Notes: generated by a model from the letters alone, not told the origin. 64,000 nucleotides of DNA from Spirochaetia bacterium (GCA_965226065.1 OZ245332.1:809651-873650); one strand, 5' to 3'; positions 6,758 to 42,500 are shown, counted from the stretch's first letter. Translations and numbers: made by a program.

Positions 6758-6767
6758 CTAGTAGTCC

Positions 6768-23306: not shown

Positions 23307-23925
23307 ATGACACATAAGAAACCTATATATATATATATATATATATATACTCATTACGATAGCATTAGTAAGCTGTGAACCCGACAAAGTACTATACAAA
23401 GTAATTCCACAAAAAGCAAAAATTATAAAGTCCTCCTTTGAAAAAGAAGCAGTATTCCTGAAATGGGATGTAAAGAAGCTAAAAGAAGAGAAGGTAGCAG
23501 CCTATGGAATATCGTATGGCATCGTGAATGGAAAGACGCTTAAAAAGCGAGAGGTAGTACCAAAGTTCATGGAAGCAGAAGGGTTCACGATACGCAAACT
23601 AGAAGAAGGAATACAGTATTGGTTTAAGGTGCAGGCAATCTACGAAGAATTTTCAGGACCGTGGTCAGAGAAAGCAGAAGGGATAACGGGTAAGCCACAG
23701 CCACCGGTAAATTTTAAGGTAAAGAAAAACACGGAAAAGGCAAAATGGTTTGTCAATGTATCATGGGAAAATAACCCATTGAATGATGAAAGAAAATTAA
23801 ATATAGAAGAATATAGGGTAAAGTGCTGGGACAGCAATAACCCTACAAGTAAATATGAAAAGACATTTTCATCTTTACTGTGGATAATGTACTATTCTGT
23901 ATACTTATCAATCAATAAAACATAA
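23307..23925 (+). CDS. Variable surface lipoprotein, N-terminal module copy A (phase-OFF at the TA tract; truncated after FN3-like domain)
   Basis: After the TA tract the frame ...ILITIALVSCEPDKVLYKVIPQKAKII...EVVPKFMEAEGFTIRKLEEGIQYWFKVQAIYEEFSGPWSEKAEG... is open to 23925. It diverges from the full-length paralogue after KYEKTFS and runs into the upstream region of the next gene. Confidence 0.55.
23324..23349 (+). repeat. (TA)13 tract inside codons 6-14 of lipoprotein copy A
   Basis: Counted directly. ATG at 23307, CCT at 23322-23324, then 26 nt of TA, then CTCATTACGATAGCATTAGTAAGCTGT. The signal peptide frame is +1 relative to the ATG, so this copy is OFF. Confidence 0.9.
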
Positions 23926-23957
23926 ATAAATATAATTAAAAAACAAGGAGAAATACT

Positions 23958-24734
23958 ATGAAAAAAATATATACAACAATACTAATTATTGCCTTAGCTT
24001 TATTCATCTCATGCGATGAGAAGAAAGCCGAAGATGATATTAAAAAAGCATTTACAAAGATTACCGATAAAGCGGGAGATGTAATAGACGCCGTAGACAA
24101 GACAACACCGAAGCCGAAAGGAAGCGGAACGCTTACGAATACCGAAGGTGAAGAAGCAGAAGACGAAGAGGCAGAAAGTGAAGGAGTTGAAGAGCCAGAA
24201 GACACACTAACACTAATAAAACCCGTACTAAACCGTGAAAATGCACCGTGGAGCAGAAGAATTGTATTTGCGAAAATAGCACAGCATACCTACAGATTAA
24301 AAGAAGAAAAAACAGGAGTAGCACTTACGGAGTATAACAGGGATATAATGCAAGTAACCGCCACGCAGTCCGCACAAAATGTAATCGTAGTCGCCACGTT
24401 TGACGGTAAGACTTCAGAAAGTAACCCTATTGAGTTTACAAGAATACCAGGCAATACCCTAAGCTTTGCACAGGCAAAACGAACAGAAAACGCATATACT
24501 ACCGAAAGCTATACCCAAGCAGCTACTAAAGGTGATACAGTTGCAGGAGATACCAGAAATATACAATATAGCATAAACCCTACAGGTGAAGGTGTTACCA
24601 TCGATAGCAGTAGCGGAGAGGTTACCATTCAAAGAGGCTCGGACCCAGCGGGAGACTATACTATTACCGCAGAACTTCCAGAAGATGAAAAATATACAAG
24701 AGCCACCGCAACATACAGCCTTACCGTTGAGTAG
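23958..24734 (+). CDS. Small surface lipoprotein paralogue (signal peptide, acidic linker, one Ig-like repeat, conserved C-terminal domain)
   Basis: MKKIYTTILIIALALFISC lipobox. Repeat core ATQSAQNVIVVATFDGKTSESNPIEF. C-terminal GDTRNIQYSINPTG...SSSGEVTI...YTITAELP..EKYTRATATYSLTV is shared with the 25645, 40429 and 41292 genes. Confidence 0.75.
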   Translation: MKKIYTTILIIALALFISCDEKKAEDDIKKAFTKITDKAGDVIDAVDKTTPKPKGSGTLTNTEGEEAEDEEAESEGVEEPEDTLTLIKPVLNRENAPWSRRIVFAKIAQHTYRLKEEKTGVALTEYNRDIMQVTATQSAQNVIVVATFDGKTSESNPIEFTRIPGNTLSFAQAKRTENAYTTESYTQAATKGDTVAGDTRNIQYSINPTGEGVTIDSSSGEVTIQRGSDPAGDYTITAELPEDEKYTRATATYSLTVE

Positions 24735-24846
24735 CGTAACACATGAAAAGCAAAGACATGAAAGGCTTAGAGGCAGATTACAAAATACATAAACGACTTG
24801 AAAAAAAGAAAGTAAAAGACTTAAAAAACTTGGCTAAAGAGGAAAG

Positions 24847-25005
24847 GAAAGCAAAAGACGCTAAAACACCATGTAATACATGACAAAATTGTAATGTATT
24901 TTAAGTAGAAAAAAGCTTGAAAAAAAGAGTAAATGTACCATTATGTATATAGGTAGAAGTTTATTTTTATCCTTAGAAAACTTTTACGTAGTACAGGAGT
25001 AATTC
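24847..25005 (+). promoter_or_regulatory. Conserved 5' expression module, copy B
   Basis: Near-identical to 23152-23306. Confidence 0.55.
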
Positions 25006-25622
25006 ATGATATATAAGAAACCTATATATATATATATATATATACCCTAATTACGATAGCATTAGTAAGCTGTGAACCCGACAAAGTACTATACACAGTA
25101 ATTCCACAAAAAGCAAAAATTATAAAGTCCTCCTTTGAAAAAGAAGCAGTATTTCTGAAATGGGATGTAAAGAAGCTAAAAGAAGAGAAAATAGCAGCCT
25201 ATGGAATATCGTATGGCATCGTAAATGGAAAGACACTTAACAAGCGAGAGGTAGTACCAAAGTTCATGGAAGCAGAAGGGTTTACGATACGCAAACTAGA
25301 AGAAGGAATACAGTATTGGTTTAAGGTGCAGGCAATCTACGAAGAATTTTCAGGACCGTGGTCAGAGAAAGCAGAAGGGACAACGGGCAAGCCACAGCCA
25401 CCGGTAAATTTTAAGGTAAAGAAAAACACGCTAGGGACAAAATGGTTTGTAGATGTATCGTGGGAAAATAACCCATTGAATGATGAAAGAAAATTAAATA
25501 TAGAGGAATATAGGGTAAAGTGCTGGGATAGCAATAACCCTACAAGTAAATATGAAAAGACATTTTCATCTTTACTGTGGATAATGTACCATTCTGTCTA
25601 CTTATCAATCGATAAAGTATAA
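25006..25622 (+). CDS. Variable surface lipoprotein, N-terminal module copy B (phase-OFF; truncated)
   Basis: Downstream frame TLITIALVSCEPDKVLYTVIPQKAKII...MEAEGFTIRKLEEGIQYWFKVQ... is open to 25622. It has the same truncation junction as copy A. Confidence 0.55.
25023..25044 (+). repeat. (TA)11 tract in lipoprotein copy B
   Basis: ATG at 25006. 22 nt of TA follow, then CCCTAATTACG, which is 2 nt longer than the CTCATTACG of the other copies. The lipoprotein frame is therefore +2, so this copy is OFF despite the same n as the ON copy. Confidence 0.9.
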
Positions 25623-25644
25623 GTAAAACAAAGGGAGAAATACT

Positions 25645-27006
25645 ATGAAGAAACTATATACAACAATACTAATTATTGCCTTAGCTTTGTTCATTTCATG
25701 CGATGAAAAGAAAGCAAAAGATGAAATTACAAAGGCACTTGATAAAGCGGTGGACGCGGTAGATAAGACAACACCGAAACTAACTAAACCCGTACTAAAT
25801 GCTACCCGTGTGAGAGTAGGAACAGCGGCTACATTCCCTAAAGTAGCAGGGTATACCTACACCTTAAAAGAGAAAAAAAGAGGAGTCAGAATAAGCGAAG
25901 GTACAAGTAACACAATGCAAGTCACCGCTACACAAGCAGCTAGCGGTGTTGTTGTAGTTGCGACTAAGGACGGTAATAGCATAGATAGCGAGCCTATAGA
26001 ATTTGTTATTATTGAGTTAACGAAACCCGCAGTAAGTAGCTACCGTGTGAGAACGGTACAAGTGGCTACATTCCCGAAAGTGTTAGGACATACTTATGAA
26101 TTGAAACAAGCTATAAGCGGTGTAAGCCTTGAGGTATCAGATGAGAGCATGGGACGAGTAACCGCTACACAAGCAGCAAGCAATGTAATCATAGTAGCAA
26201 CGCTTGACGGTAACACCGAGGAAAGCGACCCTATAGAATTTGTACTTATTGAGTTAATAAAGCCAGCAGTAAGTAGCAACCGTGTAAAAGTAGGAACACC
26301 GATTATACTTACAAAAGTAGAAGCACATACCTATAAATTGAAAGAAGAGGTAAGCGGCGTAAGTCTTGAGGTATCAGATGAGAGCACGGGAGAACTCACA
26401 GCCACGCAGTCCGCACAAAATGTAATTATAGTAGCCACGCTTGATGGTAATACCGAAGAAAGCGACCCTATAAATTTTATTGAGGTAATAAAACCCGCAG
26501 TAAGCGAAATTTCAGCACCCTGGGATACAGTAATTACATTCCCGAAAGAACCAGAGCATACTTATGAACTGAAAGAAGAAAAAACAGGAGTCACATTAAG
26601 CGAGGCTACCAGTGACACAATGCAAATCACCGCTACACAGTCCGCACAAAATGTAATTATAATTGCAACGGTTGACGGCTTAACTGAAGAAAGCGACCGT
26701 ATTGAGTTTAGAAGAAAGCAGGGTAATGCTTTAAGCTTTGCACAACCAAGACGATCGGAAAAACGAAGAACTACTTTTACGCAAACCGCTAGTAAAAGCG
26801 GAGCAGTTGCAGGAGATACCCGAGACATAACATATAGCGTATATCCTAGTGTTTTCGGTGTTAGTGTTGATAGCAGTAGCGGAGAAGTTGCAGTAAATTT
26901 TATTGCCGACTATAGACGGTATACTATTACCGCACAACTTCCAAGAACCGCAAAGTACGAAAGAAGCACCGCAACATATACACTTGTAGTCCCGAGATCG
27001 AAATAA
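25645..27006 (+). CDS. Surface lipoprotein paralogue with four tandem ~78-aa Ig-like repeats plus conserved C-terminal domain
   Basis: MKKLYTTILIIALALFISC. Repeats KPAVSS.RV..G....TKV..HTY.LK....GVSLEVSDES.G..TATQ.A.NVIIVATLDGNTEESDPIEF occur four times. C-terminal YTITAQLP..AKYERSTATYTLVV. Confidence 0.75.
   Translation: MKKLYTTILIIALALFISCDEKKAKDEITKALDKAVDAVDKTTPKLTKPVLNATRVRVGTAATFPKVAGYTYTLKEKKRGVRISEGTSNTMQVTATQAASGVVVVATKDGNSIDSEPIEFVIIELTKPAVSSYRVRTVQVATFPKVLGHTYELKQAISGVSLEVSDESMGRVTATQAASNVIIVATLDGNTEESDPIEFVLIELIKPAVSSNRVKVGTPIILTKVEAHTYKLKEEVSGVSLEVSDESTGELTATQSAQNVIIVATLDGNTEESDPINFIEVIKPAVSEISAPWDTVITFPKEPEHTYELKEEKTGVTLSEATSDTMQITATQSAQNVIIIATVDGLTEESDRIEFRRKQGNALSFAQPRRSEKRRTTFTQTASKSGAVAGDTRDITYSVYPSVFGVSVDSSSGEVAVNFIADYRRYTITAQLPRTAKYERSTATYTLVVPRSK
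25780..26725 (+). repeat. Intragenic tandem repeats (~234 bp x4) encoding Ig-like modules
   Basis: Seen as repeated peptide blocks in the 453-aa product and as repeated antisense ORF fragments. Confidence 0.7.
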
Positions 27007-27140
27007 TTAAAAGAAAAGCGAAGACATGAAAGACTTAAAGGCAGAAAATCAATCACAAAATGTAATGTAAGGACGAAAAAAAACAACCTTTTTACTGTGA
27101 ATAATCTACCATTCTGTCTACTTATCATAAGTAAATATAA

Positions 27141-27760
27141 TTGAAACACGCAGAGGAACGCGAAGAATATGAATTACGCGTGAAAGCAAGCACAAACACG
27201 GGAGATATTGTGAAGCCGACATTCAGACCTAGTAAAAGTGAGCCATGGGGAACGGATATAAGCTTTGAAAAGCTTGAGGGCTATACGTATGAATTGAAAG
27301 ACGACAAAGGTGGAGCAGTGAGCTTAGACACAAGCAGTGACCCTGCGAGAATAAGTGCGACAGAGTCTGTGAGCGCAGTAGTGATAGAAGTGAGACGTTC
27401 GGGATATAGTGGGAAAGTAGAAAGCGACCCGATTGAGTTTACGAAAAAAGCGGGCAACGGCTTGAGCTTTGTGAGCTCTTCAGAAGAGAAAAGAGTTAGC
27501 ACTGCTTCCGCAACATTTACGCAGAGCGCTACTAACGATAGAGCAGTTACAGGAGATGACAGATCCGTAGTGTACAGCATAAGCCCTACGGGACAAGGTG
27601 CCACGATAAACCCTAGTAGCGGTGAGGTGACAATAACACCAGCGGCCGCAATCAATGGCTTTACCGTTACCGCAACATTACCCGCAAACGCAAAGTATAC
27701 CGCTTCTAACACGGCAACATATACGCTTAATGTAGTGGCTCCACCGGGAACAAGAAAGGT
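27141..27760 (+). pseudogene. Promoterless mosaic fragment of the variable lipoprotein family (internal part of the 718-aa paralogue joined to a C-terminal-domain variant)
   Basis: Begins abruptly at AEEREEYELRVKASTNTGDIVKPTFRPSKSEPWGTDISFEKLEGYTYELKD... This block is nearly identical over ~100 aa to the middle of the minus-strand gene at 34593-36934. It then switches to ...GLSFVSS..ATFTQSATNDRAVTGDDRSVVYSISPTG..SSGEVTIT...YTLNV. It has no signal peptide or module upstream, only the family junction sequence at 27081-27130. Confidence 0.6.
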
Positions 27761-28418
27761 ACGCGTATTGGTATCGTTTAATTATCTTAACTTAATAAAA
27801 GGTAACAAAGGACAAATCTTGTGGATAAAAACAAGTATTATAAATGCGCATGCAGGGTACAGGGTCAGGGTATTCAAAATTATTCAATAATTACAGTGTC
27901 ATATACATGTATGATTATTTATTGTTATTAAAAACTTTATGCTTTAGCTTCGGCTTATAGCAGCTCCGGTATCTAGTCGTGCCGGCAGTATGGAATGCAT
28001 GTAATTTGCAAAATTATTTGCTTTGATTGTCTTTACTTACCCCTTATGAATTTTATAAGATGTGTATTGTATGTCCTAGTATTTTACCACGGTATTATAC
28101 ATGGTGTTTTTTATAGAAAAGGAGCAAAAGTATCGTTGCAAGTGAAAGAGAAATAATACTTACAAAGTTGAGACCTTTTCAATTTCTAACGGCGGAAGAG
28201 GAATTTTGATTTGAACCAATACTTTAACAGATACTATATCTTGAGTAGCACCATGTAAATATTTACTAATAAAATTAGTTAGAATTAACTTTAAATATTT
28301 TAAGGATAATAATTCAATCATTGTATTCAATTGTACTTTTCATCAGACGCTATTAAAGTGTGCATACAATATAATAAAATTACCTTATTTCTAAATAATA
28401 CAAGAGCGGAGTTATTAT

Positions 28419-29714
28419 ATGCTTGATATTAAATACATCGTAAAGAATGCATCTCGTTTTAGTACATCTGCACAGCAGAGAAATGTACGCGACTTCGTAC
28501 CAGAGCTCGTAGGCTTGTACGAAAAGAGTCTCATCATACAACAAGAATTAGAAACACTCTCTCAAGAACGAAACCATGTAGCAAAAGAAATTTCACAAAA
28601 AAAGGACGATGGACGCGCACGCCTTGTAGCACGCGGCAAAGAACTGAAAATGCAAATATCCGAGCATGACGCAGAACTGAAAAAGCTACAAAACGATATT
28701 CAATCGCTTGCCTTACAAATTCCAAACATACACCATCCGTCTGCACCACTTGGAAAAGAAGAAAAAGATAATCTCGTCATAAAAACGCATGGCACTGCAC
28801 GACAATTTTCTTTCACACCTAAAAGCCATATAGATTTGTGTACTGAACTCAATATTGTAGATTTTACCAACGCGACAAAAGTATCAGGACCGAAATTTTA
28901 CTACTTGAAAAATGAAGCGGTGTTATTAGAACTCGCACTTATACGCTTTGGAATTGACATACTACGCGAACATGGCTTTACAATTTTTGAAACACCTGAC
29001 ATTGCGCGCACTTCTATTGTCGAAAGTATCGGGTTTCTTCCGAGAGGAAATGAAAGTAACATTTACAACATTGAAGATGAAGGTACATCTCTTATCGGTA
29101 CGGCAGAAATAACCCTCGGTGGCTATTATGCAGATAGCATTATACCGTTGGAGTTACTGCCTATAAAAATGGCAGGAATTTCGCATTGCTTTCGCCGAGA
29201 ATCAGGTGCAGCAGGACAATATTCAAAAGGACTGTATCGTGTACATCAGTTTACGAAACTGGAAATGTTTGTTTTTTGCCATCCTGATAAATCAGAAACA
29301 ATGCATGAGGAATTATTGACGATAGAAGAACAACTGTATCAAAAGTTAGAAATCCCATACAGAATCGTAGATACCTGCACGGGAGATTTAGGAGCATCCG
29401 CCTACAGAAAATTTGACATAGAGGCGTGGATGCCAGGACGCGGAAAAACCGGCGAGTACGGCGAAATTACAAGTGTATCAAATTGTACCGATTATCAATC
29501 GCATAGGCTTAGTATACGCACACAAGACGAAGATTCCTCACACAATAAAATAAGGATATTTCCTCACACGTTAAACGGCACGGCACTTGCCATACCTCGA
29601 ACGCTTATTGCGATTGTAGAAAATTTTCAAAACGAGGATGGAAGTATACGTATACCCGATGTACTTATTCCTTATTGTGGTTTTTCATCTGTGAAGAAAA
29701 GCCACAATTCGTAA
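28419..29714 (+). CDS. serS: Seryl-tRNA synthetase
   Basis: 431 aa. N-terminal coiled-coil arm plus class II core (motif 2 region FRRESGAAG, motif 3 region). Confidence 0.9.
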   Translation: MLDIKYIVKNASRFSTSAQQRNVRDFVPELVGLYEKSLIIQQELETLSQERNHVAKEISQKKDDGRARLVARGKELKMQISEHDAELKKLQNDIQSLALQIPNIHHPSAPLGKEEKDNLVIKTHGTARQFSFTPKSHIDLCTELNIVDFTNATKVSGPKFYYLKNEAVLLELALIRFGIDILREHGFTIFETPDIARTSIVESIGFLPRGNESNIYNIEDEGTSLIGTAEITLGGYYADSIIPLELLPIKMAGISHCFRRESGAAGQYSKGLYRVHQFTKLEMFVFCHPDKSETMHEELLTIEEQLYQKLEIPYRIVDTCTGDLGASAYRKFDIEAWMPGRGKTGEYGEITSVSNCTDYQSHRLSIRTQDEDSSHNKIRIFPHTLNGTALAIPRTLIAIVENFQNEDGSIRIPDVLIPYCGFSSVKKSHNS

Positions 29715-29728
29715 TATTTCACAAACCG

Positions 29729-30835
29729 ATGCACGAATTTATAGCAGAGATAGGCACTTCGCATCTCGGATCTTTTGAAAAAGCAAAATGCATGATAGAT
29801 GCAGCGCGTAAGGCAGGTGCAACAACTGCAAAGTTTCAATGGGTTATAGCCGATGAAATAATTTCAAAGCATGCGGGTATTATTACCCTACCTAATGGAG
29901 ATACAAACATCTACGAGTATTTTTTGTCAGTGGAAAAAGATAAAGATTTTTACGCAAAACTTAAATCTTACACAGAGAAATGCGGCTTAGAATTTTTATG
30001 CAGTGTCTTTGGGCTAAAATCTCTGCATCTATTGCTACAACTAAACCCAAAGAGAATAAAAATAGCCTCACCCGAAATAAACCATAGAGAACTCTTACAG
30101 TCCCTTGCACAACATAAAGTCGCAGTAGTGCTCTCAAGTGGTGTATCAACTTTGATAGATTTATTACGAGCGGTCAATATTCTACGTGCAGGCAAAATAG
30201 AAGATATTGCTATATTACGCTGCGTTACAGAATATCCTGCTTCACCTTATTCGTACGCACTACAATTACTGGAAAAATACCAAACACTCTTTCAATGCCA
30301 ATGCGGAATATCTGACCACACGCAAGAAACTTCAATACTTCCTACTATCGCAGCAGCATATGGAAGCACGATGGTAGAAAAACATTTTTTTCTCCCTAAT
30401 GAACACGACGAGGTAACACGCTGTCCTGATGATCCTATTGCATTATCACCTCATGCATTTTCTGAAATGGTAAAATCTACTACAAACATCGCAACAATAT
30501 ACAAAACAAAAGGCCATCGCGCTGCAAAAACTGCGGTTAAAAAATGCTATGGTGAGAAGACCGTTCACGCAGTTATAGGTACTAGACAATCTTCAAAAAA
30601 ACAAAAACATAGCGCTGCATTGTTACCTCATTACTTTACTACGCGAAGAAGTCTTTTTGCGCGTACAAACATAGCAAAAGGGAATATACTCACACCACAA
30701 AATTGTATATTGCAGCGTAGTGAACACAACACAAGGCCGGGTATACCCACTGAAGCATATACCACAATTTTGGGTAAAAAAGTACATTCGAAAATAGCAA
30801 AAGGCATGCCAATAACATTTGAACATTTCCTGTAG
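29729..30835 (+). CDS. NeuB-family nonulosonic-acid (sialic/pseudaminic/legionaminic acid) synthase-like protein with SAF domain
   Basis: N-terminus FIAEIGTSHLGSFEKAKCMIDAARKAGATTAKFQ matches the NeuB TIM-barrel signature (IAEIG.NH.G....A..MI..A...GA...KFQ). The C-terminal ~60 aa are SAF/antifreeze-like. Start taken at MHEFIAE. Confidence 0.65.
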   Translation: MHEFIAEIGTSHLGSFEKAKCMIDAARKAGATTAKFQWVIADEIISKHAGIITLPNGDTNIYEYFLSVEKDKDFYAKLKSYTEKCGLEFLCSVFGLKSLHLLLQLNPKRIKIASPEINHRELLQSLAQHKVAVVLSSGVSTLIDLLRAVNILRAGKIEDIAILRCVTEYPASPYSYALQLLEKYQTLFQCQCGISDHTQETSILPTIAAAYGSTMVEKHFFLPNEHDEVTRCPDDPIALSPHAFSEMVKSTTNIATIYKTKGHRAAKTAVKKCYGEKTVHAVIGTRQSSKKQKHSAALLPHYFTTRRSLFARTNIAKGNILTPQNCILQRSEHNTRPGIPTEAYTTILGKKVHSKIAKGMPITFEHFL

Positions 30836-30917
30836 GAGTAATTGAGAAAAAGCATTGAGACTATGCAGAAAACTCTAAATCTCATCAAGGTTATTTTCAA
30901 TATATTTGATTATATTT

Positions 30918-31626
30918 AGAAGAAGGAGAACCACTAAAAGAAGGTATCAGAGAAGTAGAAAGAGCAGGAAGGTTTTTTCACTATTTCGCTGCAGAAGCAT
31001 TGAGAAACATCGGCGATTTTGTAGACTCAGTTCGTACAGAAGTACAAATAGAAGTATTTAGAGTGCCGGTAGGTACCGTACTTGTTATCACGCCATGGAA
31101 TTTTCCTGTTGCACTCCCTGCATGGAAAATAGCTCCTGCACTTGCCTTTGGTAACAGCGTTATCTTAAAACCTGCTTCCACTACTCCAGCTAGTGCCTGT
31201 GCCTTGGCAAAAATAATTCACGAAGCAGGAGTGCCTGAAGCTGTGTTTCAAATGCTACTCAGCGACTCTGTACTCGGAGAAACATTGGTAAAAAATCCCG
31301 CATTTGATGCAGTAAGCTTTAGAGGATCCTTTGCCGTAGGACGCAATATTGCAAGACTCTCAGGTGAGCTACTACGCCACTTCCAATTAGAAATGGGCAG
31401 CAAAAACGCACTCATCATCCTTGATGATGCCGACATTGATATTGCAGTAGCCTGTGCAATCAATGGTGCCTTTGGTGGTACAGGGCAAAAATGCACTGCA
31501 TCCTCTCGCATCATTGTAAGCGAAGGAATATACAAAACCTTTCTCGAAAAATTCACAGAAGCGGCTTCACAATTTAGGCTATTCGGGAGGTATGTTAGGA
31601 CTAAGCCTATATCCTTTTCATCTTAA
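30918..31626 (+). pseudogene. Aldehyde dehydrogenase family gene remnant (central ~230 aa only)
   Basis: Open frame ...[23 protein letters not shown]...[32 protein letters not shown]...ELGGKNA-like LEMGSKNALII...GQKCTASSR. It lacks the first ~100 aa and the C-terminal catalytic Cys domain end. Confidence 0.6.
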
Positions 31627-31654
31627 AAATACCTCTGATTGTCAGATATCTGAC

Positions 31655-31756
31655 ATGATGGACGAAATAAAACGTATAGTTGATTTGGTGGGAATAGATC
31701 ATGTCGCATTAGGTACAGATATTTGTCAAGGTCGCTCTGTGCAAGAATTAGAATAA
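31655..31756 (+). pseudogene. Fragment resembling the C-terminal end of a membrane dipeptidase (M19)
   Basis: The 34 codons MMDEIKRIVDLVGIDHVALGTDICQGRSVQELE* resemble the IDHVGIGSDFDG region of M19 dipeptidases. Very short, so the call is tentative. Confidence 0.35.
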
Positions 31757-31766
31757 CTGAAGCGGT

Positions 31767-32997: not shown

Positions 32998-33006
32998 CAT
33001 ATATAA

Positions 33007-34464
33007 CTAATACGCTTTGGCAAACACCGCGAAATATTGTGCCTTGCAGCCTGTGTATATGCACCTATGCGTGTCTTTTGGTACTTCTTCATGCAGTATA
33101 CGAATGGTCGCCTTGGTTTTTTCCTTAATGGCAATTTCAGTTTGTGAAGTACCATCCCATGGAGCGATAACATAGCCCGAAACATCACTTTGCATATGCG
33201 AAACTAACTCATCAAAAGTAAAAACACGCCGTGTATGCGCATCTACAAAATTACGCGCTTTGTTCAACAAGTCGCCTTGCATAGTATTAAGGGTAATACC
33301 TACGTATTCATGCGCCTTTTCTAAGGGTAGAAAAACCTTCTCACCTGTATCACGACGCACCACAACACATTGATTTTTTTCTAAATCTTTCGGACCGATT
33401 TCAATGCGTATGCAGGCACCGCGCAACTCCCACTCTGCAAATTTCCACCCCGGTGAGGTAGTATCATCGCTATCACATGTTACCCTATAATCAGTAGAAA
33501 GCGTTTTTGTAAGAGACTGCGCCATCTCTTCTATAGCGCGCTTATCTGTGCCTTTTTTATAAATAGGAATTACCACAACATGAGTAGGCGCAATTTTTGG
33601 CGGAACAACCAAGCCCTTATCATCAGAATGTGTCATGATAACCGCGCCTATAAGGCGTGTAGAAACTCCCCACGATGTTGCCCACACGTAGTCAAGTTTC
33701 AAATCACGCGTTTGATATTGAACCTCAAAAGCTTTTGCAAAATTCTGTCCAAGAAAATGAGATGTGCCTGCCTGTAAAGATTTACCATCCTGCATTAGCG
33801 CTTCTATACCATATGTTTCTACCGCGCCTGCAAATTTTTCTTCCTCAGATTTTCTGCCATAGAGAATAGGCAAAGCAAGTACATCTTGTGCAAATTGCTT
33901 GTAAATTTCAAAGATGCGCAAGGTCTCTTCTCGTGCTTCTGCTTCACTTTCATGTGCCGTATGCCCTTCTTGCCACAAAAATTCCGTTGTACGCAAAAAA
34001 GGACGAGTGCGTTTTTCCCATCGCACCGCATTTGCCCATTGATTTATCAAAATTGGCAGGTCTCTATAAGACTGTATCCATTTTTTGTACATGCTCCAAA
34101 TTATCGTTTCAGATGTCGGTCGCACTATAAGTGGCTCTTCCAATGTGTCTCCCCCACCGTGTGTCACAACCGCAAGCTCGGGAGCAAAACCATCTACATG
34201 CTCACGCTCTTTGGCAATAAAACTCTGCGGTATAAAAAGAGGAAAATACGCATTCACATGTCCCGTCTCCTTCAAACGAGCATCAAGATGTTCTTTCAAA
34301 AGCTCCCACATAACATAGCCACGTGGACGAATGACCATACATCCTTTGATAGAGCTGTAATCAGCGAGCTCAGCACGCGTTACAATGTCTAAATACCATT
34401 GCGAGTAATCATCTTTTTGAGAAGTAATTTTTTTCTCCATCTTTCTTAGTATAGCAAAGCGCAT
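33007..34464 (-). CDS. proS: Prolyl-tRNA synthetase, archaeal/eukaryotic-type
   Basis: 485 aa. N-terminus ...[18 protein letters not shown]. Class II motifs. No bacterial-type insertion domain. Confidence 0.9.
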
Positions 34465-34592
34465 GATGCAACTAAAATGTAAATTTTCGAGAGTAAAAAT
34501 CTGATTTTTGAAAGAATATTTTGATGTGTAATAAATACTTAACTACTACAAAATAAAAAGTAAAATGTTATCCCCTAAGGCGGACTTGCAAG

Positions 34593-36934
34593 TTAATTGT
34601 ATTTTCTTATGCGATAACAAAGACCCTTTTTCCAATTCCCGTCTCTATGTGTCCCAGTTGCACTGCAGTGATATTCATGCAGTTTTACTGTTATTTTATA
34701 AGATGCTGTACTTTCCGTATACTTCTCATTTTGTTCTTTTTTCGCAGTAATTGTTTCTGTTTTTGATCCTCTAAAAATTATAAGTCGATCCATATCAATT
34801 CTAGAAGATGATGCTGTGTATATAATTCTTCTTTTGTCGCCGGGGATATCTCTGCTTACACGCACCTTTTGAAGCCTTGCTCGTCCAAAAGCGTTTCTGA
34901 TTTTCCCAAACTTTGGCACATTAACTGTTAGCATAAAAGGTCCTGTTTTTGTAAAGAAAAGCGTATCGCCCGTTTGCCTCGTAAACGTTATCGGGACACT
35001 GTCTATGACAGCTTCTTCGTATTTCGAATCTCCAGGTAGTATCGCTTGTACAATTACATTTTCAGCAAACTGATTAGCGGTAATTTTTCCATTGCCTAGT
35101 GTCACTCCAGTATGACGGTTTTTCAATTTATACCTATGCAGCGGTGCAGGGGTAAATGTAATAGCTGTTCCCCACGGCACACTCGTTTTACTGAATATAG
35201 GCTTTGTCGCAGGTCTCGTCTGCTTCGTAAACTCAATCGGGACACTGTCTATGACAGCTTCTTCGTATTTCGAATCTCCAGGTAGTATCGCTTGTACAAT
35301 TATATTTTTAGCAAACTGATTAGCGGTAATTTTTCCATTGCCTAGTGTCACTCCAGTATGACGGTTTTTCAATTTATACCTATGCAACGGTGCAGGGGTA
35401 AATGTAATAGCTGTTCCCCACGGCACACTCGTTCTACTGAATATAGGCTTTGTCGCAGGTCTCGTCTGCTTCGTAAACTCAATCGGGTCGCTTTCTACTT
35501 TCCCACTATATCCCGCACGTCTCACTTCTATCACTACTGCGCTCACAGACTCTGTCGCACTTATTCTCGCAGGGTCACTGCTTGTGTCTAAGCTCACTAC
35601 TCCGCCTTTGCTGTCTTTCAATTCATACGTATAGCCCTCAAGCTTTTCAAAGCTTATATCCGTTCCCCATGGCTCACTTTTACTAGGTCTGAATGTCGGC
35701 TTCACAATATCTCCCGTGTTTGTGCTTGCTTTCACGCGTAATTCATATTCTTCGCGTTCCTCTGCGTATTTATCATCCGCTGCCTTCCTCGCTGTTATCG
35801 TAAATGTATTGCCTACCGCTGCTGCCTCAATGCTCACTTCACCACTACTGCCGTCTATTCTCGCTCCACTGCTACTCGGATTTATGCTGTATCGCACGGG
35901 TGTGTCTTCAGGGTCAGTTTCTGTAATTACATGCGTATATTTGTTTTCATTTGTGTTAAACATGAAATCATGACTTGCACTTTCAAACTTAAATCTATCT
36001 CCCGCTTGCCTCGTAAATGCTATTTCTGCACTTTCTTCTTTTCCCTCATATTCTGTGTGTGTCACTTCTATCACTACTGCACTCACAGACTCTGTCGCAC
36101 TTATTCTCGCAGGGTTATTGCTTATGTCTAAGCTCACTACTCCGCCTTTGCTGTCTTTCAATCTATACTTATGACCTTCAAGCATTCCAAAGGTAATGTC
36201 TGTTCCCCACTGCACACTCGTTTGACTGAATGCTGGCGCTTCTATCGCCTTTGCTGTGGTGCTTCTCCTCTCTACCGTGCTTCTTACTCCTTTGTCTGTC
36301 TCTATGTACAATTCACATATATACTCTTTTCCCGCTTTTAGCGCTAACTCATTCATCTTCATAGAAACTTCTTCTTGTGACGCTTCTTTCTCTTTAGCTA
36401 CCCCTCCTGTCTCATTACACTTCACTTTGTAGCTGTAACGTATCTCTAAGTCTTCGTTCACCTCGTTCTTTTTCCAGCGTAACTCAAGACTTCGTTTGCC
36501 ATCTTTTGTGGGCTGCTTTATTATCTTAAAATCTGTAGGTGGTTCTGGTTGCCCCGTTGTCCCTTCTGCTTTCTCTGACCACGGTCCTGAAAATTCTTCG
36601 TAGATTGCCTGCACCTTAAACCAATACTGTATTCCTTCTTCTAGTTTGCGTATCGTAAACCCTTCTGCTTCCATGAACTTAGGGACTACCTCTCGTTTGT
36701 TAAGAGTCTTGCCGTCTACTATGCCATATGATATTCCATAGGCTGCCACCTTCTCTTCTTTTAGCTTCTTTACATCCCATTTCAGAAATACTGCTTCTTT
36801 TTCAAAGGATGCTTTTATAATTTTTGCTTTTTGTGGAATTACTGTGTATAGTACTTTGTCGGGTTCACAGCTTACTAATGCTATCGTAATGAGTATATAT
36901 ATATATATATATATATAGGTTTCTTATGTGTCAT
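34593..36934 (-). CDS. Variable surface lipoprotein copy C (~780 aa if in frame; phase-OFF at TA tract)
   Basis: ATG at 36934 (MTHKKP...), (TA)12 at 36894-36917, then the signal peptide frame is shifted (offset 41 nt, not divisible by 3). The downstream frame is open to 34593. It carries the FN3-like N-module, Ig-like domains and an internal 83-aa duplication. Confidence 0.6.
34985..35482 (-). repeat. Intragenic ~249-bp direct duplication in copy C
   Basis: TKQTRPATKPIFS(R/K)TSVPWGTAITFTPAPLHRYKLKNRHTGVTLGNGKITANQFA.N.IVQAILPGDSKYEEAVIDSVPI.F occurs twice. The DNA is near-identical. Confidence 0.75.
36894..36917 (-). repeat. (TA)12 tract in copy C
   Basis: Counted on the plus strand between GAG (36891-36893) and GG (36918-36919). 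Confidence 0.9.
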
Positions 36935-37088
36935 AAATTACTCTTGTACTGTGTAAAAGTTTTCTAAGAATTAAAACAAACTTTTACCTACATATATAAT
37001 GGTACATTTACTCTTTTTTTCAAGCCTTTTTTTACCTAAAATACATTACAATTTTGTCATGTATTACATGGTGTTTTAGCGTCTTTAG
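36935..37088 (-). promoter_or_regulatory. Conserved 5' expression module, copy C
   Basis: Reverse complement matches the copy A/B module. Confidence 0.55.
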
Positions 37089-37248
37089 ACATACTGCTTA
37101 TGCTTTTGCCTCTATCATGTCACGGCTGATAGGTAGACAGAATAGGGTATTATCCACAGTAAAATAATACTGAAATATAACACGCTTACATTACATTTTA
37201 CGCTTGCACCTCATCGATGTTTGGACATTCTTTGTCGCTTGTTTTCTT

Positions 37249-40158
37249 TTACCATGCCCATTTCGGCTTATTTGATTTCTGCATTGCGGTTGCACTCATG
37301 AATATGTATTGGGCGTTTCTTCCGCTTTTGTCTACCCAAGCGGTTAAGTCTTGATTGAATGAAGTAGCAAAGTAGAACATATAGCTCATGGCTGTTACAC
37401 TTGATACATCCCAATTATTAAGCGACTGATTGAATGAAGTAGCCTCTCTGAACATATGGCTCATTTCTGTTACACTCGATACAGTCCAATTATTAAGCGG
37501 CTTATTGAATGAGGTAGCATTTTGAAACATACTCCACATTTCTGTTACACTCGATACAGTCCAATTATTAAGCGGCTGATTGAATGAAGCAGCATTGTCA
37601 AACATATGGCTCATGGTTGCTACACTCGATACATCCCAATTATTAAGCGGCTGATTGAATGAAGTAGCATTGTAAAACATACCGCTCATGTCTGTTACGC
37701 TTGAGGTGTTCCATTTGCTAATGTCACCGTTAAAAGTAGCATTGTTATAAAAAAGCTCGCTCATATCGGTTATGTCTGAAGTATCGATGTAGTTTAGATC
37801 TACTTCGTTGCCGTGTGCTCTTATGGCTTGCTTAATTTCGTATATCAATTCTGCTTTAGTTGGGGTTTTGAATTTTGCCACTGTTAGCTGGTATGATGCT
37901 CTTTGTGCTTCGTATTTTGCACTTTGTGCCTTTCTTGCTGTTATTGTAAATGTATTGCCTATCGCTGCTACTGTAAAGTCTACTTTACCGCTTACGCTAT
38001 CTATGCTCGCAACTGCTCCCGTGGGACTGATGCTATATTCGATGTCCCTAGTATCACCGCTTACGCTTCTATCATTAGTAGCAACCTGTGTATAAGTATT
38101 TCCACCTGTTGCATACATGGTATTCTTATTCACGGTTGCAAAGCGGATCGTACTACCTGCCTGCCTTCTAAACTCAATAGGATCACTTTCTACGCTTCCC
38201 GTATAACCTCTACGCTTTGCAACAATAATAATATTTGCTGCTGGCTGTGTTGCTGTTATTTGCCCGGTACTCTTATCAAACGCTACCCCGGTTATAGCTT
38301 GTTTCAATTCATAGCTATGATCCACTACTTTTGTAAGTCTGATAGGTGTACCCCACCTCTCGCTTCTTTTGCTTACCGCTGGTTTTGTAATATCTCCTGT
38401 GTTTGTATTTGCTTGCACTCTTAGCTGGTATGATGCTCTTTGTGCTTCGTATTTTGCACTCTGTGCCTTTCTTGCTGTTATCGTAAATGTTGTCCCTATC
38501 GCTGCTAGTGTAAAGTCTACTTTACCGCTTCCCGTATCGATGCTTGCACCTACTCCCGTGGGACTGATGCTATACGATACGACTCCCGTATCTCCTGCTA
38601 CTACTCTATCGTTAGTAACCGTCTGTGTATGAGTATTTCCCTTGCCGTATTGTACCGCTACATCGATGTTTGCAAAGCGGAGCGTACTACCTGCTTGTCT
38701 TGTAAACTCAATAGGATCGCTTTCTACGCTTCCCGTATAACCTCTACGCTTTGCCACAATAATAATCCTTGCTGCTGGCTGTGTTGCTGTTATTTGCCCG
38801 GTACTCTTATCAAACACTACCCCGGTTATAGCTTGTTTCAATTCATAGCTATGATCCGCTACTTTTGTAAGTCTGATAGGTGTACCCCAGCTCTCGCTTC
38901 TTTTGCTTACCGCTGGTTTTGTAATATCTCCTGTGTTTGTATTCGCTTGCACTCTTAGCTGGTATGATGCTCTTTGTGCTTCGTATTTTGCACTTTGTGC
39001 CTTTCTTGCTGTTATCGTAAATGTCTTGCCGACTGCTCCTAGCGTAAAGTCTACTTTACCGCTTCCCGTATCTACGCTTGTACCTGCTCCCGTGGGACTG
39101 ATGCTATACGATACGACTCCGGTATCTCCTGCTACTACTTTATCGTTAGTAACAGTTTGTGTATGAGTATTTCCGCTTTTTCCATATTCTATCGGTACAT
39201 CAATGTTTACAAAGCGAAGCGTATTGCCTGCTTGTCTCGTAAACTCAATAAGTTCACTTTCTGCACTCCCTGTATAGCCTGTGCGTTTTGCAACAATAAT
39301 AATCCCTGTTACCGGCTGTGTTGCTGTTACTTGCCCGGTGCTCTCATCAAACACTACCCCGCTTATAGCTTGTTTCAATGCGTAGCTATGATCTACTACT
39401 TTTGTAAGTGTAATCGGTGTTCCCCACCTTTCGCTTCTTTTACTTACCGCTGGTTTCTCTATATCATCAAACGCAAGTACTCCGCTTTGCTTTACTTCGC
39501 TTAGCGTTCCTTTATCTGTTTTTACCTGCACACTACAAACATAGTTCACCTTCCCGCTTGTCTCCAGTACTCCTTTTGTAGATACCTTTGTAGGTGCTGA
39601 AAATGTCTTTTCATATTTACTTGTAGGGTTATTGCTATCCCAGCACTTTACCCTATATTCTTCTATATTTAATTTTCTTTCATCATTCAATGGGTTATTT
39701 TCCCACGATACATCTACAAACCATTTTGTCCCTAGCGTGTTTTTATCTACCTTAAAGTCTACCGGTGGCTCTGGCTTACCCGTTGTTCCTTCTGCTTTCT
39801 CAGACCAGGGTCCCGCAAACTCTTCATAGATTGCCTGCACCTTAAACCAATATTGAGTCCCTTCTTTTAGCTTGCGTATTGTAAAGCCTTCTTTTTCCAT
39901 GAACTTAGGCACTACTTCTCGTTTGTTAAGAGTCTTGCCGTCTACTATGCCATATGATATTCCATAGGCTGCCACCTTCTCCTCTTTTAGCTTCTTTACA
40001 TTCCATTTTAGAAATACTGCTTCTTTCTTAAAGGAGGACTCTATAATTTTCGCTTTTTGTGGAATTACTGTATATAGTACTTTGTCGGGTTCACAGCTTA
40101 CTAATGCTATCGTAATGAGTATATATATATATATATATATAGGCTTTTTATGTCTCAT
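37249..40158 (-). CDS. Variable surface lipoprotein copy D, full length and in frame (969 aa): FN3-like N-module, 3x178-aa Ig-like repeats, C-terminal DUF285/BspA-like repeat array
   Basis: ATG at 40158. MRHKKPIYIYIYILITIALVSCEPD... with lipobox LVSC. (TA)11 is in frame. The ORF is continuous to 37249. Confidence 0.85.
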   Translation of the reverse strand: MRHKKPIYIYIYILITIALVSCEPDKVLYTVIPQKAKIIESSFKKEAVFLKWNVKKLKEEKVAAYGISYGIVDGKTLNKREVVPKFMEKEGFTIRKLKEGTQYWFKVQAIYEEFAGPWSEKAEGTTGKPEPPVDFKVDKNTLGTKWFVDVSWENNPLNDERKLNIEEYRVKCWDSNNPTSKYEKTFSAPTKVSTKGVLETSGKVNYVCSVQVKTDKGTLSEVKQSGVLAFDDIEKPAVSKRSERWGTPITLTKVVDHSYALKQAISGVVFDESTGQVTATQPVTGIIIVAKRTGYTGSAESELIEFTRQAGNTLRFVNIDVPIEYGKSGNTHTQTVTNDKVVAGDTGVVSYSISPTGAGTSVDTGSGKVDFTLGAVGKTFTITARKAQSAKYEAQRASYQLRVQANTNTGDITKPAVSKRSESWGTPIRLTKVADHSYELKQAITGVVFDKSTGQITATQPAARIIIVAKRRGYTGSVESDPIEFTRQAGSTLRFANIDVAVQYGKGNTHTQTVTNDRVVAGDTGVVSYSISPTGVGASIDTGSGKVDFTLAAIGTTFTITARKAQSAKYEAQRASYQLRVQANTNTGDITKPAVSKRSERWGTPIRLTKVVDHSYELKQAITGVAFDKSTGQITATQPAANIIIVAKRRGYTGSVESDPIEFRRQAGSTIRFATVNKNTMYATGGNTYTQVATNDRSVSGDTRDIEYSISPTGAVASIDSVSGKVDFTVAAIGNTFTITARKAQSAKYEAQRASYQLTVAKFKTPTKAELIYEIKQAIRAHGNEVDLNYIDTSDITDMSELFYNNATFNGDISKWNTSSVTDMSGMFYNATSFNQPLNNWDVSSVATMSHMFDNAASFNQPLNNWTVSSVTEMWSMFQNATSFNKPLNNWTVSSVTEMSHMFREATSFNQSLNNWDVSSVTAMSYMFYFATSFNQDLTAWVDKSGRNAQYIFMSATAMQKSNKPKWAW
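37280..37770 (-). repeat. C-terminal array of ~6 x 27-aa repeats (FNQPLNNWDVSSVT.MS.MF.NATS), DUF285 / BspA-like LRR type
   Basis: Repeated peptide DISKWNTSSVTDMSGMFYNATSFNQPLNNWDVSSVATMSHMFDNAASFNQPLNNWTVSSVTEMWSMFQNATSFNKPLNNW... Period is 81 bp. Confidence 0.7.
37860..39470 (-). repeat. Three near-identical ~534-bp intragenic tandem repeats (178 aa each)
   Basis: Protein blocks KPAVSKRSE.WGTPI.LTKV.DHSY.LKQAI.GV.FD.STGQ.TATQP...IIIVAKR.GYTGS.ES.PIEF.RQAG.T.RF......TITARKAQSAKYEAQRASYQL.VQANTNTGDIT occur three times. The antisense ORFs 37808-38095, 38369-38632 and 38903-39166 are almost identical. Confidence 0.85.
40120..40141 (-). repeat. (TA)11 tract in copy D (in-frame, ON)
   Basis: ATG first base at 40158. 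First base of CTC (Leu) at 40119. Offset is 39 nt, so in frame. Confidence 0.9.
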
Positions 40159-40307
40159 GCATTACTCCTGTACTATGTAAAAGTTTTCTAAGGATTAAAA
40201 CAAACTTTTACCTATGTACATAATGGTACATTTATTCTTTTTTTCAAGCCTTTTTTCACCTAAAATACATTACAATTTTGTCATGTATTACATGGTGTTT
40301 TAGCGTC
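40159..40307 (-). promoter_or_regulatory. Conserved 5' expression module, copy D
   Basis: Reverse complement matches the module, including AGGAG 8 nt before the ATG. Confidence 0.55.
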
Positions 40308-40428
40308 TTTTTCTTTCCTTTCCTCTTTAGCCAAGTTTTTTAAGTCTTTTGCGTTCTTTCTTTTCAAGTCGTTTATGCATTTTGTAATCTGCCTCTAAGC
40401 CTTTCATGTCTTCGCTTTTCATATTCCG

Positions 40429-41133
40429 TCACCTAGCAAAGTCGTCACTTACAAGTAGTTTGTATGTTGCGGTACTTCGTTCGTATTTCTCGTTTTGCTG
40501 AAGTTCTGCGGTAATAGTATAGTCTCCAGTGTCTGCCTTATCTGCAACTCTAACCTTACCGCTACTGCTGTCAATAATAACACCGTGGTCGGCGGGACTG
40601 ATGCTATATTTTATATTGCGGGTATCTCCTGCAACTGTTCCGCTTTTACTAGCGGTTTGCGTAAAAGTAGCTCTTCGTCTTTCTGTGCGGCTTGCCTGTG
40701 CAAAGCTCAAGGTATTGCCTTGCTTTCTTGTGAACTCAATAGGATCGCTTTCTGAAGTTTTGCCGTCAAGGGTTGCGACTATGATTACATTTTGCGCGGA
40801 CTGTGTAGCGGTGAGTTGCATTGTCTCGCTGCTGTACTCTGTAATTGCTACTCCTGTTTTTTTCTCTTTCAAGGTGTAGGTATGGTCTGGTATTTTTGGG
40901 AATAAAATAGGTTCACTCCACGGTACAAGCTTACCGCTTAGTGCGGGTTTTCGTGCTATATTCGTAAGCGTTCCGCTTCCTTGTTTCTTCGGTGTTGCTT
41001 TATCTGCCACGTCCTCCGCTTTATCCTCTATTTTCTCAATGGCTTTAGTAATATCATCTTCGGCTTTCTTTTCATCGCAAGAGATGAATAAAACCAATGA
41101 AATAATTAGTATTGCGGTATATAGTTTCTTCAT
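40429..41133 (-). CDS. Small surface lipoprotein paralogue (234 aa)
   Basis: MKKLYTAILIISLVLFISC. One Ig-like repeat (ATQSAQNVIIVATLDGKTSESDPIEF). Conserved C-terminal domain (..YTITAELQQNEKYERSTATYKLLV). Confidence 0.75.
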   Translation of the reverse strand: MKKLYTAILIISLVLFISCDEKKAEDDITKAIEKIEDKAEDVADKATPKKQGSGTLTNIARKPALSGKLVPWSEPILFPKIPDHTYTLKEKKTGVAITEYSSETMQLTATQSAQNVIIVATLDGKTSESDPIEFTRKQGNTLSFAQASRTERRRATFTQTASKSGTVAGDTRNIKYSISPADHGVIIDSSSGKVRVADKADTGDYTITAELQQNEKYERSTATYKLLVSDDFAR

Positions 41134-41291
41134 AGTATTTCTCCCTTTGTTTTAATTATACTTTATCGGCTGATAGGTAGATACAATACTACATTATGCA
41201 TAGTAAAATGTTATTGCAACATAACACGCTTACATTACATTGTCTGTCTGCTTTTAAGTCTTCGCTTTTCATATTTTTTTGAGTTTTGCCA

Positions 41292-42092
41292 TTAACTGCA
41301 TGGCCTGTCTCCCGCAAGGTGATGACACACCGCTAGCGTATAGGTTGCGGTAGCTCTTCTATATTTTTCGGTTTGTGGAAGTTCTGCCGTTACGGTAAAC
41401 TTTACATTAGCTGCGCTTTGTGTAAGTGTTACTTCTCCGCTAGCGGAGTCAATTGTTCCACCTCTTCCCGTAGGGTTTATGCTATATGTTACACCTCGGT
41501 TGTCTCCTCTTACCGATGTAGTATGTACTCTAATCGCTTGCGTGTATTTTGATTCTCCGCTTCTTTTTAGAGTTATTCCATTGGCATTGTTAGCAAAGCT
41601 CAAGGTATTACCCTGTATTCTCGTAAACTCAATAGGGTTACTTTCAATGCTCTCACCGTTAAGCGTTGCGACTATGATTACATTTTGTGCGGACTGCGTG
41701 GCGGTGATTTGCATTCTGTTACCGGTAACCTCTGTAAGTTCTACTCCTGTTTTTTCTTCTTTCAATTCATAGGTATGCTCCGCTATTTTCGCAAATATAA
41801 TTATTACGTTCCATGGTGCACTCTCACGGCTTAGTGCGGGCTTTATTAGTGCTTGCGGTGATGTGTCTTCTGGTTCTTCAACTCCTTCACCTCCTGCGTC
41901 TTCACCTTCGGCATTTTTAGGCGTACCGCTTCCTTGTGGCTTTGGGGTTGCTTTGTCCACTACATCTGCCGCTTTATCGGTAATCTCTGTAAATGCTTTT
42001 TTTATATCGTCTTCGGCTTTAGCTTTCTGCTCATCGCATGAGACAAACAAAGCCAATGCAATAATTAGTATTGCTGTGTATATTTTATTCAT
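41292..42092 (-). CDS. Small surface lipoprotein paralogue (266 aa)
   Basis: MNKIYTAILIIALALFVSC. Same architecture (ATQSAQNVIIVATLNGESIESNPIEF ... YRRATATYTLAV). Confidence 0.75.
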   Translation of the reverse strand: MNKIYTAILIIALALFVSCDEQKAKAEDDIKKAFTEITDKAADVVDKATPKPQGSGTPKNAEGEDAGGEGVEEPEDTSPQALIKPALSRESAPWNVIIIFAKIAEHTYELKEEKTGVELTEVTGNRMQITATQSAQNVIIVATLNGESIESNPIEFTRIQGNTLSFANNANGITLKRSGESKYTQAIRVHTTSVRGDNRGVTYSINPTGRGGTIDSASGEVTLTQSAANVKFTVTAELPQTEKYRRATATYTLAVCHHLAGDRPCS

Positions 42093-42120
42093 AGTATTTC
42101 TCCTTGTGTTTTAATTATCT

Positions 42121-42500
42121 TGTTGTTCCTTCTATTTTCTCCGACCAGGGTCCTGAAAATTCTTCGTAGATTGCCTGCACCTTAAACCAATACTGTATTC
42201 CTTCTTCTAGTTTGCGTATCGTGAACCCTTCTGCTTCCATGAACTTTGGCACTACCTCTCGCTTTTTAAGCGTCTTTCCATTCACGATGCCATACGATAT
42301 TCCATAGGCTGCTATTTTCTCTTCTTTTAGCTTCTTTACATCCCATTTCAGGAATACTGCTTCTTTTTCAAAGGAGGACTTTATAATTTTTGCTTTTTGT
42401 GGAATTACTTTGTATAGTACTTTGTCGGGTTCACAGCTTACTAATGCTATCGTAATGAGTATATATATATATATATATATATAGGCTTTTTATGTATCAT
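42121..42500 (-). pseudogene. Truncated N-terminal module copy E (phase-OFF, ~125 codons) fused directly to the upstream region of the 41292-42092 lipoprotein gene
   Basis: ATG at 42500 (MIHKKP...), (TA)12 at 42460-42483 (offset 41, so OFF). The FN3-like sequence runs down to ...EKAEGTTG at ~42125. The conserved upstream element of the small lipoprotein gene follows immediately. Confidence 0.55.
42460..42483 (-). repeat. (TA)12 tract in copy E
   Basis: Counted on the plus strand between GAG (42457-42459) and GG (42484-42485). Confidence 0.9.

Follow-up and report, generated by a model that had tools for sequence, protein, structure and literature searches.

The opa genes of Neisseria, present at ~11 loci per gonococcal genome, contain CTCTT pentamer repeats in the region coding for the leader peptide (PMC3745409), and oipA of Helicobacter pylori is switched ON and OFF by slipped-strand mispairing at CT repeats in the signal-peptide region (PMC10564699). 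In Mycoplasma mycoides and M. capricolum, (TA)n tracts of 10-16 units are found at several variable lipoprotein genes of one genome, the Vmm and Vmc systems (PMC3053259). In Treponema pallidum, the putative outer-membrane antigens encoded by tprE/G/J, tprL and tp0126 undergo poly-G phase variation (PMC7864442). Here, we describe a 64,000-nucleotide (nt) stretch of DNA from a Spirochaetia bacterium (GCA_965226065.1 OZ245332.1:809651-873650), hereafter called the window, in which five genes of putative lipoproteins (copies A to E) each carry a (TA)n tract within their first codons. The best explanation of this arrangement, which we hold to be quite probable from the sequence, is slipped-strand (simple-sequence-repeat) translational phase variation of independently promoted loci.

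The five tracts were perfect arrays, and each of them began 17 nt past its near-identical ATG start. The positions and lengths (13/11/12/11/12 units) listed in an initial annotation of the window were exact when compared with a pattern search and Tandem Repeats Finder. The strands were corrected by reading the DNA, with copies A and B on the plus strand and copies C, D and E on the minus strand (Table 1). The expected number of 20-nt TA runs was 0.00 in 100 dinucleotide-preserving shuffles. Beyond the five tracts, a regular-expression census of the whole 64 kb revealed no (TA)≥5 and no further dinucleotide tract, nor was there any A/T run of ≥10 or G/C run of ≥7. Thus, long TA tracts in the window are restricted to these five sites.

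Alignment showed that a 5' cassette of ~560 bp, extending from approximately -175 to +390 relative to the ATG, is common to all five loci. Its order is a promoter-like site, AGGAG, ATG, Lys-Lys, the tract, a lipobox (LVSC) and an Fn3 domain (Pfam E = 6e-9 to 8e-10). Ahead of each tract, AGGAG (weakened to AAGAG in C) is followed after six nt by ATG-x-CAT/TAT-AAR-AAR-CC; the CAT third codon that had been claimed for every copy was present in A, C, D and E, and B has TAT. After each tract the sequence reads CTC ATT ACG ATA GCA TTA GTA AGC TGT, the junction in B being CCCTA ATT. The in-frame N-terminus is M-x-H-K-K-P-IYIYIYI-LITIALVSC, composed of a charged n-region, a hydrophobic core which is partly tract-encoded, and the lipobox L-V-S-C. 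The tract had been described as encoding (IY)n, and (TA)11 in fact gives seven residues, IYIYIYI, not (IY)11. When signal peptide and lipobox were judged by reading the sequence rather than with a predictor, the in-frame products contained M-x-H/Y-K-K-P, IYIYIYILITIA and L-V-S-C compared to the pattern [LVI][ASTVI][GAS]C, suggesting that they are lipoproteins with the Cys as the presumed lipidation site.

The promoter-like site was found at an identical position in all five copies, approximately 62-90 nt upstream of the ATG. These sites are consensus matches only, the total number of such matches not being above that in shuffles. An imperfect palindrome, AATACATGACAA/TTGTAATGTATT, was invariant in the alignment of the five cassettes; it lies upstream of the promoter-like site and is a possible operator or regulator-binding site. 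A second inverted repeat with 16-nt arms occurs in the presumed 5' untranslated region (23251-23291 in A, with equivalents in B-E). A 46-amino acid (aa) open reading frame (ORF) upstream of the B cassette was dropped as a candidate since it was not conserved upstream of D.

When each copy was translated from its own ATG, only D was open, giving 969 aa at n = 11 units as the initial annotation had claimed. The frames of A, C and E, and B ended after 23, 17 and 14 codons, respectively. The tract was then swapped in silico for n = 9-14. Copies A, C, D and E, which have the standard junction, were open at n = 11 or 14, and B was open at n = 10 or 13. The ON lengths of B are different because its junction, CCCTAATT where the others have CTCATT, contains two extra nt. 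Both sets of ON lengths, and the 2-nt difference that keeps B OFF at n = 11, agreed with those put forward earlier. As the repeat unit is 2 nt, the gain or loss of one unit shifts the frame. The in-silico repair showed that tract length is the sole defect in A, B, C and E, behind whose OFF tracts lie intact frames of 204, 204, 776 and 127 codons, respectively. Moreover, the remaining two leader frames hold stops (TGA in ATGA and TAA in CATAAG), so that no upstream start is able to rescue an out-of-frame allele.

Like opa, this is a multigene surface-protein family in which each copy has its own promoter and a non-3n repeat in the signal-peptide coding sequence, with frame setting expression and the loci being independent, hence combinatorial (PMC3745409); for the present loci these properties are read from the sequence and are putative. 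In contrast to opa, the proteins are unrelated (here fn3 and DUF285 in Pfam), the unit is TA, the products are lipobox lipoproteins and not beta-barrel outer-membrane proteins, and the gene bodies vary greatly in length and modules. The opa switching rate has been measured as ~1e-3. The oipA, sabA, babB and hopZ genes of H. pylori likewise carry a dinucleotide repeat within the sequence that codes for the signal peptide. Unlike the present loci, those genes have CT and not TA repeats, encode unrelated Hop proteins without a common 5' cassette in their genes, and belong to a different phylum. No Opa or Hop family homology was reported by Pfam, which returned only fn3 and DUF285; these systems are analogues in mechanism, not relatives. 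In Vmm and Vmc the tract is in the promoter, between -35 and -10, and acts on transcription, whereas here it lies within the ORF, downstream of the Shine-Dalgarno sequence and beginning 17 nt past the ATG, and affects the reading frame. T. pallidum provides a spirochaete precedent for repeat-length control of putative surface antigens, but its G homopolymers lie in promoters, are transcriptional, and belong to unrelated genes. In the open-access literature searched, TA tracts were found in promoters and no intragenic (TA)n switch was found, an absence that is not proof of novelty. The mechanism itself would be a known one; the repeat unit is unusual, and the lineage is one from which no such mechanism had been reported.

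The sequence places the host among the uncultured Spirochaetia, and its genome is ~1.85 Mb in size. Among named relatives, the GroEL of the window gave its best identities (77-79%) with Salinispira, Spirochaeta and Alkalispirochaeta. When residues 1-230 of D were used as the query of a protein search, only four clusters were returned, from two ~1.8-Mb genomes (that of the window and a sister genome), and conserved cassette sequences of 24-29 nt had no exact-pattern match in the genome or metagenome contig collections scanned. The cassette family thus appears to be very narrow. Approximately 20 copies are predicted in the genome of the window, the other ~15 being judged from protein calls only. 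Besides D, full-length ON products in this genome were P0001 and P0017 (PIYIYIYI, so n = 11) and P0006 (MIYKKPIYIYIYTLITIALVSC). P0006 is a paralogue with the B variant junction and was ON at the predicted n = 10; its signal peptide and lipobox were those predicted for B at n = 10, and overall it was 95% identical to B. The alternative that P0006 is the ON orthologue of B in another strain was rejected since it is a paralogue in the same genome. Approximately 14 more calls were truncated at internal starts and are presumably OFF, and the truncated gene calls P0008 and P0011 matched A and B exactly. With D included, at least four of the ~20 copies were ON; the claim that exactly one copy is in frame was correct for the window and not for the genome as a whole.

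In the sister genome (a 1,800,608-bp contig, ~97% identical at the A locus), further copies were located in segments L001, L002 and L005, which cover the syntenic island and one other locus. The gene order on the A/B side was identical in the two genomes, running from PrmC through AhpC and a TPR protein to the cassette copy, with SerRS and NeuB farther along. At the syntenic A locus, 12 units were found in the sister genome compared to 13 in the window, with flanks ~97% identical; this is the only documented orthologous difference. Among the paralogues (11 DNA copies plus three ON products), the flanks were 80-97% identical while n ranged from 10 to 13. Standard and B-type cassettes both centred on n = 11-12 despite their different ON lengths, which is consistent with a length set by mutational equilibrium and not with a fixed one. 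An alternative is that the true length is in-frame everywhere and that the extra units are consensus errors of sequencing or assembly. Judging by the names of their contigs, both genomes are probably metagenome assemblies, that of the sister with ~8x coverage, and the differences were of only one or two units. We regard this explanation as very improbable. The two independent assemblies show a similar length spread, each with in-frame copies, and the differences are all whole TA units in otherwise perfect tracts. Moreover, the B-type cassettes, for which the in-frame length is 10, also centre on 11-12, and a caller biased to the in-frame length would not yield that. In high-accuracy long reads, miscounts are rare for dinucleotide repeats of this size (22-26 nt).

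Some observations weigh against phase variation of these loci. All tract lengths were read from assembled sequences, and a one-unit consensus error is possible at any single TA tract. The lengths at the five syntenic positions were 12/11/12/11/12 in the sister genome compared to 13/11/12/11/12 in the window, and only the D position was ON in both; the probability of such cross-genome ON/OFF agreement is ~0.1. The agreement may reflect switching that is slower here than at classic contingency loci, or else selection favoring the product of the D position. The L005 copy has a 1-nt insertion in addition to its out-of-frame tract, showing that some copies decay. The ON fractions of ~4/20 in the genome of the window and 1/6 in the sister genome were not significantly below or above the 1/3 of random frames, and they are uninformative either way.

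Selection was estimated in the shared Fn3 region over the 108 shared codons that follow the tract; ten copies were compared, including eight OFF ones. The mean nonsynonymous divergence (dN) was 0.028 and the mean synonymous divergence (dS) was 0.329 (dN/dS approximately 0.08). Together with the intact frames, this low ratio indicates that the coding capacity of OFF copies is maintained, which would be expected of genes that are ON some of the time. Gene conversion could contribute, yet it cannot give dS up to 0.7 together with dN of ~0.05. In a recombination-based system, the out-of-frame copies would mainly be an archive of silent or partial cassettes, gene conversion or recombination between the common 5' cassettes and the repeated modules would drive diversity, and tract length would be incidental. 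This would account for the strong mosaicism of the family, in which bodies ranging from 127 to 969 aa share a single ~560-bp cassette, for the 95% identity of the fragment B3 with part of C, and for a junction motif, TTTACTGTGGATAATGTAC, that recurs five times. The B-type cassette at the C position in the sister genome, the DUF285 relics immediately upstream of several cassettes and the presence of cassettes in both orientations around housekeeping genes are also in its favor. However, unlike a promoterless donor cassette, each copy retains a promoter-like site, an ATG and a Shine-Dalgarno sequence of its own, the OFF copies have long open frames under purifying selection, and tract length is the only defect of A, B, C and E. 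As a replacement for switching by tract length, recombination is therefore an unlikely explanation. It has probably shaped the family without replacing the tract switch, and both mechanisms can coexist.

Out-of-frame alleles might also be expressed through recoding, either by programmed ribosomal frameshifting or by transcriptional slippage on (UA)n. There was nothing specific in favor of it; a repetitive run could in principle slip, and a weak predicted pairing of the Shine-Dalgarno region with the post-tract sequence flanks a (UA)n hairpin. On the other hand, no recognisable frameshift signal (a slippery heptamer followed by a stimulatory structure) was present, RNA folding predicted around the start codon and tract was no better than in shuffles (z = -0.9 and -1.5), and the OFF frames meet stops within 1-8 codons past the tract, the distance varying with the frame. 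RNA polymerase slippage is documented for homopolymers and is not known to occur on dinucleotide runs. We consider expression by recoding to be extremely improbable. A structured regulatory or recoding RNA element at the start was dropped as a candidate on the basis of the same folding results, and Rfam and tRNA scans of the window gave no matches.

Slipped-strand switching, as suggested in the initial annotation, was supported by all sequence-level tests. A perfect tract with a non-3n unit is placed in the 5' coding region, the frame depends on n, and no alternative start bypasses it. The tract length is polymorphic with conserved flanks, the OFF ORFs are intact and under selection, and P0006 is open at the predicted length. 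In the mechanism that we propose, each cassette would consist of a sigma-70-like promoter, AGGAG, ATG-x-His/Tyr-Lys-Lys-Pro, (TA)n, LITIALVSC and Fn3. Replication slippage would add or remove TA units, each unit shifting the frame by 2 nt. Standard cassettes would be read through at n = 11 or 14 and those with the B-type junction at n = 10 or 13; at other lengths, translation would end after 14-23 codons and no lipoprotein would be made. With its own promoter and its own tract, each locus would switch independently, and a population would be a mixture of cells showing different subsets of adhesin-like lipoproteins with Fn3, Ig/cadherin-like and DUF285 modules. We infer slippage as the cause, and likewise the reversibility and rate of switching, the lipidation, the surface exposure and the benefit to the organism.

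Table 1. Coordinates of the features of the (TA)n lipoprotein loci in the window and of the tracts in the sister genome. Tracts in the window were located with Tandem Repeats Finder and a (TA)10 pattern search.
Feature	Position	Strand	Remarks
(TA)13 tract, copy A	23324-23349	+	
(TA)11 tract, copy B	25023-25044	+	
(TA)12 tract, copy C	36894-36917	-	
(TA)11 tract, copy D	40120-40141	-	
(TA)12 tract, copy E	42460-42483	-	
Promoter-like site A	23218-23245	+	TTGAAA-16-CATTAT, ~62 nt before ATG
Promoter-like site B	24917-24944	+	consensus match
Promoter-like site C	36996-37023	-	consensus match
Promoter-like site D	40220-40247	-	consensus match
Promoter-like site E	42562-42589	-	consensus match
Imperfect palindrome (copy A)	23176-23201		12-nt arms, 92% complementary, 2-nt gap
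Gene A1	23307-23925	+	ATG 23307, AGGAG 23296-23300; OFF, n = 13; 204-aa Fn3 lipoprotein when repaired
Gene A2	23958-24734	+	tract-free lipoprotein gene; own AAGGAG, signal peptide MKKIYTTILIIALALFISC, Ig/cadherin-like repeat domain
Gene B1	25006-25622	+	OFF, n = 11; ON at n = 10/13; 204 aa when repaired
B2	25645-27006	+	tract-free downstream lipoprotein/repeat-domain ORF
B3	27141-27890	+	tract-free repeat-domain fragment
Gene C1	34593-36934	-	ATG 36934; OFF, n = 12; 779 aa when repaired
Gene D1	37249-40158	-	ON, n = 11; 969 aa
Gene E1	42115-42500	-	ATG 42500; OFF, n = 12; 127 aa when repaired
Gene E2	41292-42092	-	tract-free lipoprotein gene, own signal peptide
Gene E3	40429-41133	-	tract-free lipoprotein gene, own signal peptide
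TTTACTGTGGATAATGTAC site	23874-23892		
TTTACTGTGGATAATGTAC site	25571-25589		
TTTACTGTGGATAATGTAC site	27091-27109		
TTTACTGTGGATAATGTAC site	37145-37163	-	
TTTACTGTGGATAATGTAC site	41189-41207	-	
Sister tract, n = 12	L001:2800		standard junction; OFF; syntenic with A
Sister tract, n = 11	L001:13997		B-type junction (CTCTAATT); OFF
Sister tract, n = 12	L002:12644		B-type junction; OFF
Sister tract, n = 11	L002:10018		standard junction; ON (P0007, 742 aa)
Sister tract, n = 12	L002:5165		standard junction; OFF
Sister tract, n = 12	L005:9717		standard junction; OFF, plus 1-nt insertion

The genes had been described as five paralogues. This was found to hold over the 5' cassette and not beyond it: the first 127-190 codons only are shared, and the genes are not five equivalent paralogues. 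The domain order of D1 is a lipoprotein signal peptide, Fn3, three tandem Ig/cadherin-like modules of ~178 aa, and C-terminal DUF285 repeats as in BspA-like surface proteins (PF03382, E = 2.4e-63, 211.6 bits compared to a cut-off of 25). The Pfam scan covered A1, C and D, with B1 and E1, which share the cassette region only, left out; DUF285 was found in D and not in A1 or C. The genes that follow A, B and E have AAGGAG and their own tract-free lipoprotein signal peptide (MKKIYTTILIIALALFISC). The view of A, B and E as multiply frameshifted pseudogenes was rejected, as their frames end at true stops and the ORFs beyond are distinct genes, each with a Shine-Dalgarno sequence and a signal peptide of its own. 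A repeat of ~175 aa is common to these second genes and to the centres of C and D. It was predicted to form two tandem beta-sandwich domains (predicted local distance difference test score of 92), and its best matches in the PDB were cadherin-23 EC pairs, intimin D0-D1 and SraP. The products look like modular adhesin-type lipoproteins that would be exposed on the surface. Tandem duplications were present inside C (34971-35487, 246 bp x 2.1, 96% identity) and inside B2 (25969-26477, 237 bp x 2.2, 77% identity), and given these the copy number of the Ig/cadherin-like modules may also vary.

The junction motif TTTACTGTGGATAATGTAC had five occurrences with ≤3 mismatches, compared to 0.04 expected. 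It precedes the tract-free ORFs A2, B2, B3 and E3 as well as the C cassette, and in A and B it overlaps a promoter-like AAGACA-17-GATAAT. DUF285 coding relics (ending in SMSSMFKDAKTPCNT and a stop) lie directly upstream of several cassettes and thus mark old recombination joints. The island formed by C, D and E (window 34593-42500) is located between PurL and ProRS. It was compared with positions 12128-17587 of L003, from a relative with 44.6% GC whose GroEL is 95% identical, in which PurL adjoins ProRS and the island is absent from that position. These findings indicate that the island is a lineage-specific insertion or expansion. No simple repeats were found in the 21.6-kb stretch of L003 examined.

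In a more distant relative (L004, GroEL 83%, 2.36 Mb), an Fn3 and DUF285 lipoprotein gene of at least 1520 aa was found to contain, within positions 18703-18860, an intragenic G14 tract between the charged N-terminus and the hydrophobic core with its lipobox (LVLVGC). Its ATG frame stops after 33 codons and the core and lipobox are in the +1 frame, so that the gene is out of frame at G14 and would be ON at G13 or G16. The frame-switch logic thus appears to recur with a different repeat in the wider lineage. In the sister genome, two orphan EcoRI-like DNA methyltransferase genes (PF13651) are preceded by a short leader ORF with (TA)11 or (CA)11(TA)12 (L001 10917-10963 and L002 3634-3694), and in L001 a sequence related to TTTACTGTGGATAATGTAC precedes the leader. 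The leader is not fused to the methylase at any tract length. The position of the leader stop varies with n, being a TAA 3 nt before the ATG, a TGA overlapping a second ATG, or a stop ~100 nt inside the gene, and the methylase may be phase-variable via translational coupling. It is conceivable, though we would not expect it, that the tracts belong to a TA-repeat phasome spanning the genome, comprising ~20 frame-switched lipoprotein loci and a methylase phasevarion that works by translational coupling and not by frameshifting of the enzyme. No intragenic (TA)n switch family would have been documented before it.

Elsewhere in the window, directly after a Fic-family gene (5591-6757), a 30-bp unit, GTAGCCCACTTTTGCACCACAAATAGTTTT, is repeated 22.5 times in a near-perfect tandem array (6761-7434, 95% matches). 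Minus-strand ORFs of 223-237 aa cross this array in all three frames, and it may be either a gene for a decapeptide-repeat protein or a non-coding minisatellite. At 8611-10743, a single ORF of 710 aa encodes MurC (residues 14-506) together with an archaeal-type (d)CMP kinase (residues 525-688), both scoring above their cut-offs (TIGR01082 and TIGR02173, respectively); such a fusion is unusual.

If true, switching by the (TA)n tracts would extend the strategy of placing contingency repeats in signal-peptide coding sequence to a spirochaete lineage outside the treponemes. Since most members of the family were called as 5'-truncated fragments, annotation would hide approximately 20 adhesin-like lipoproteins. 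The tract sites would be ready-made markers of population heterogeneity in long-read metagenomes. Moreover, the presence of such a family together with nearby sialic-acid-type biosynthesis genes suggests that this organism meets a surface-recognising host, predator or phages.

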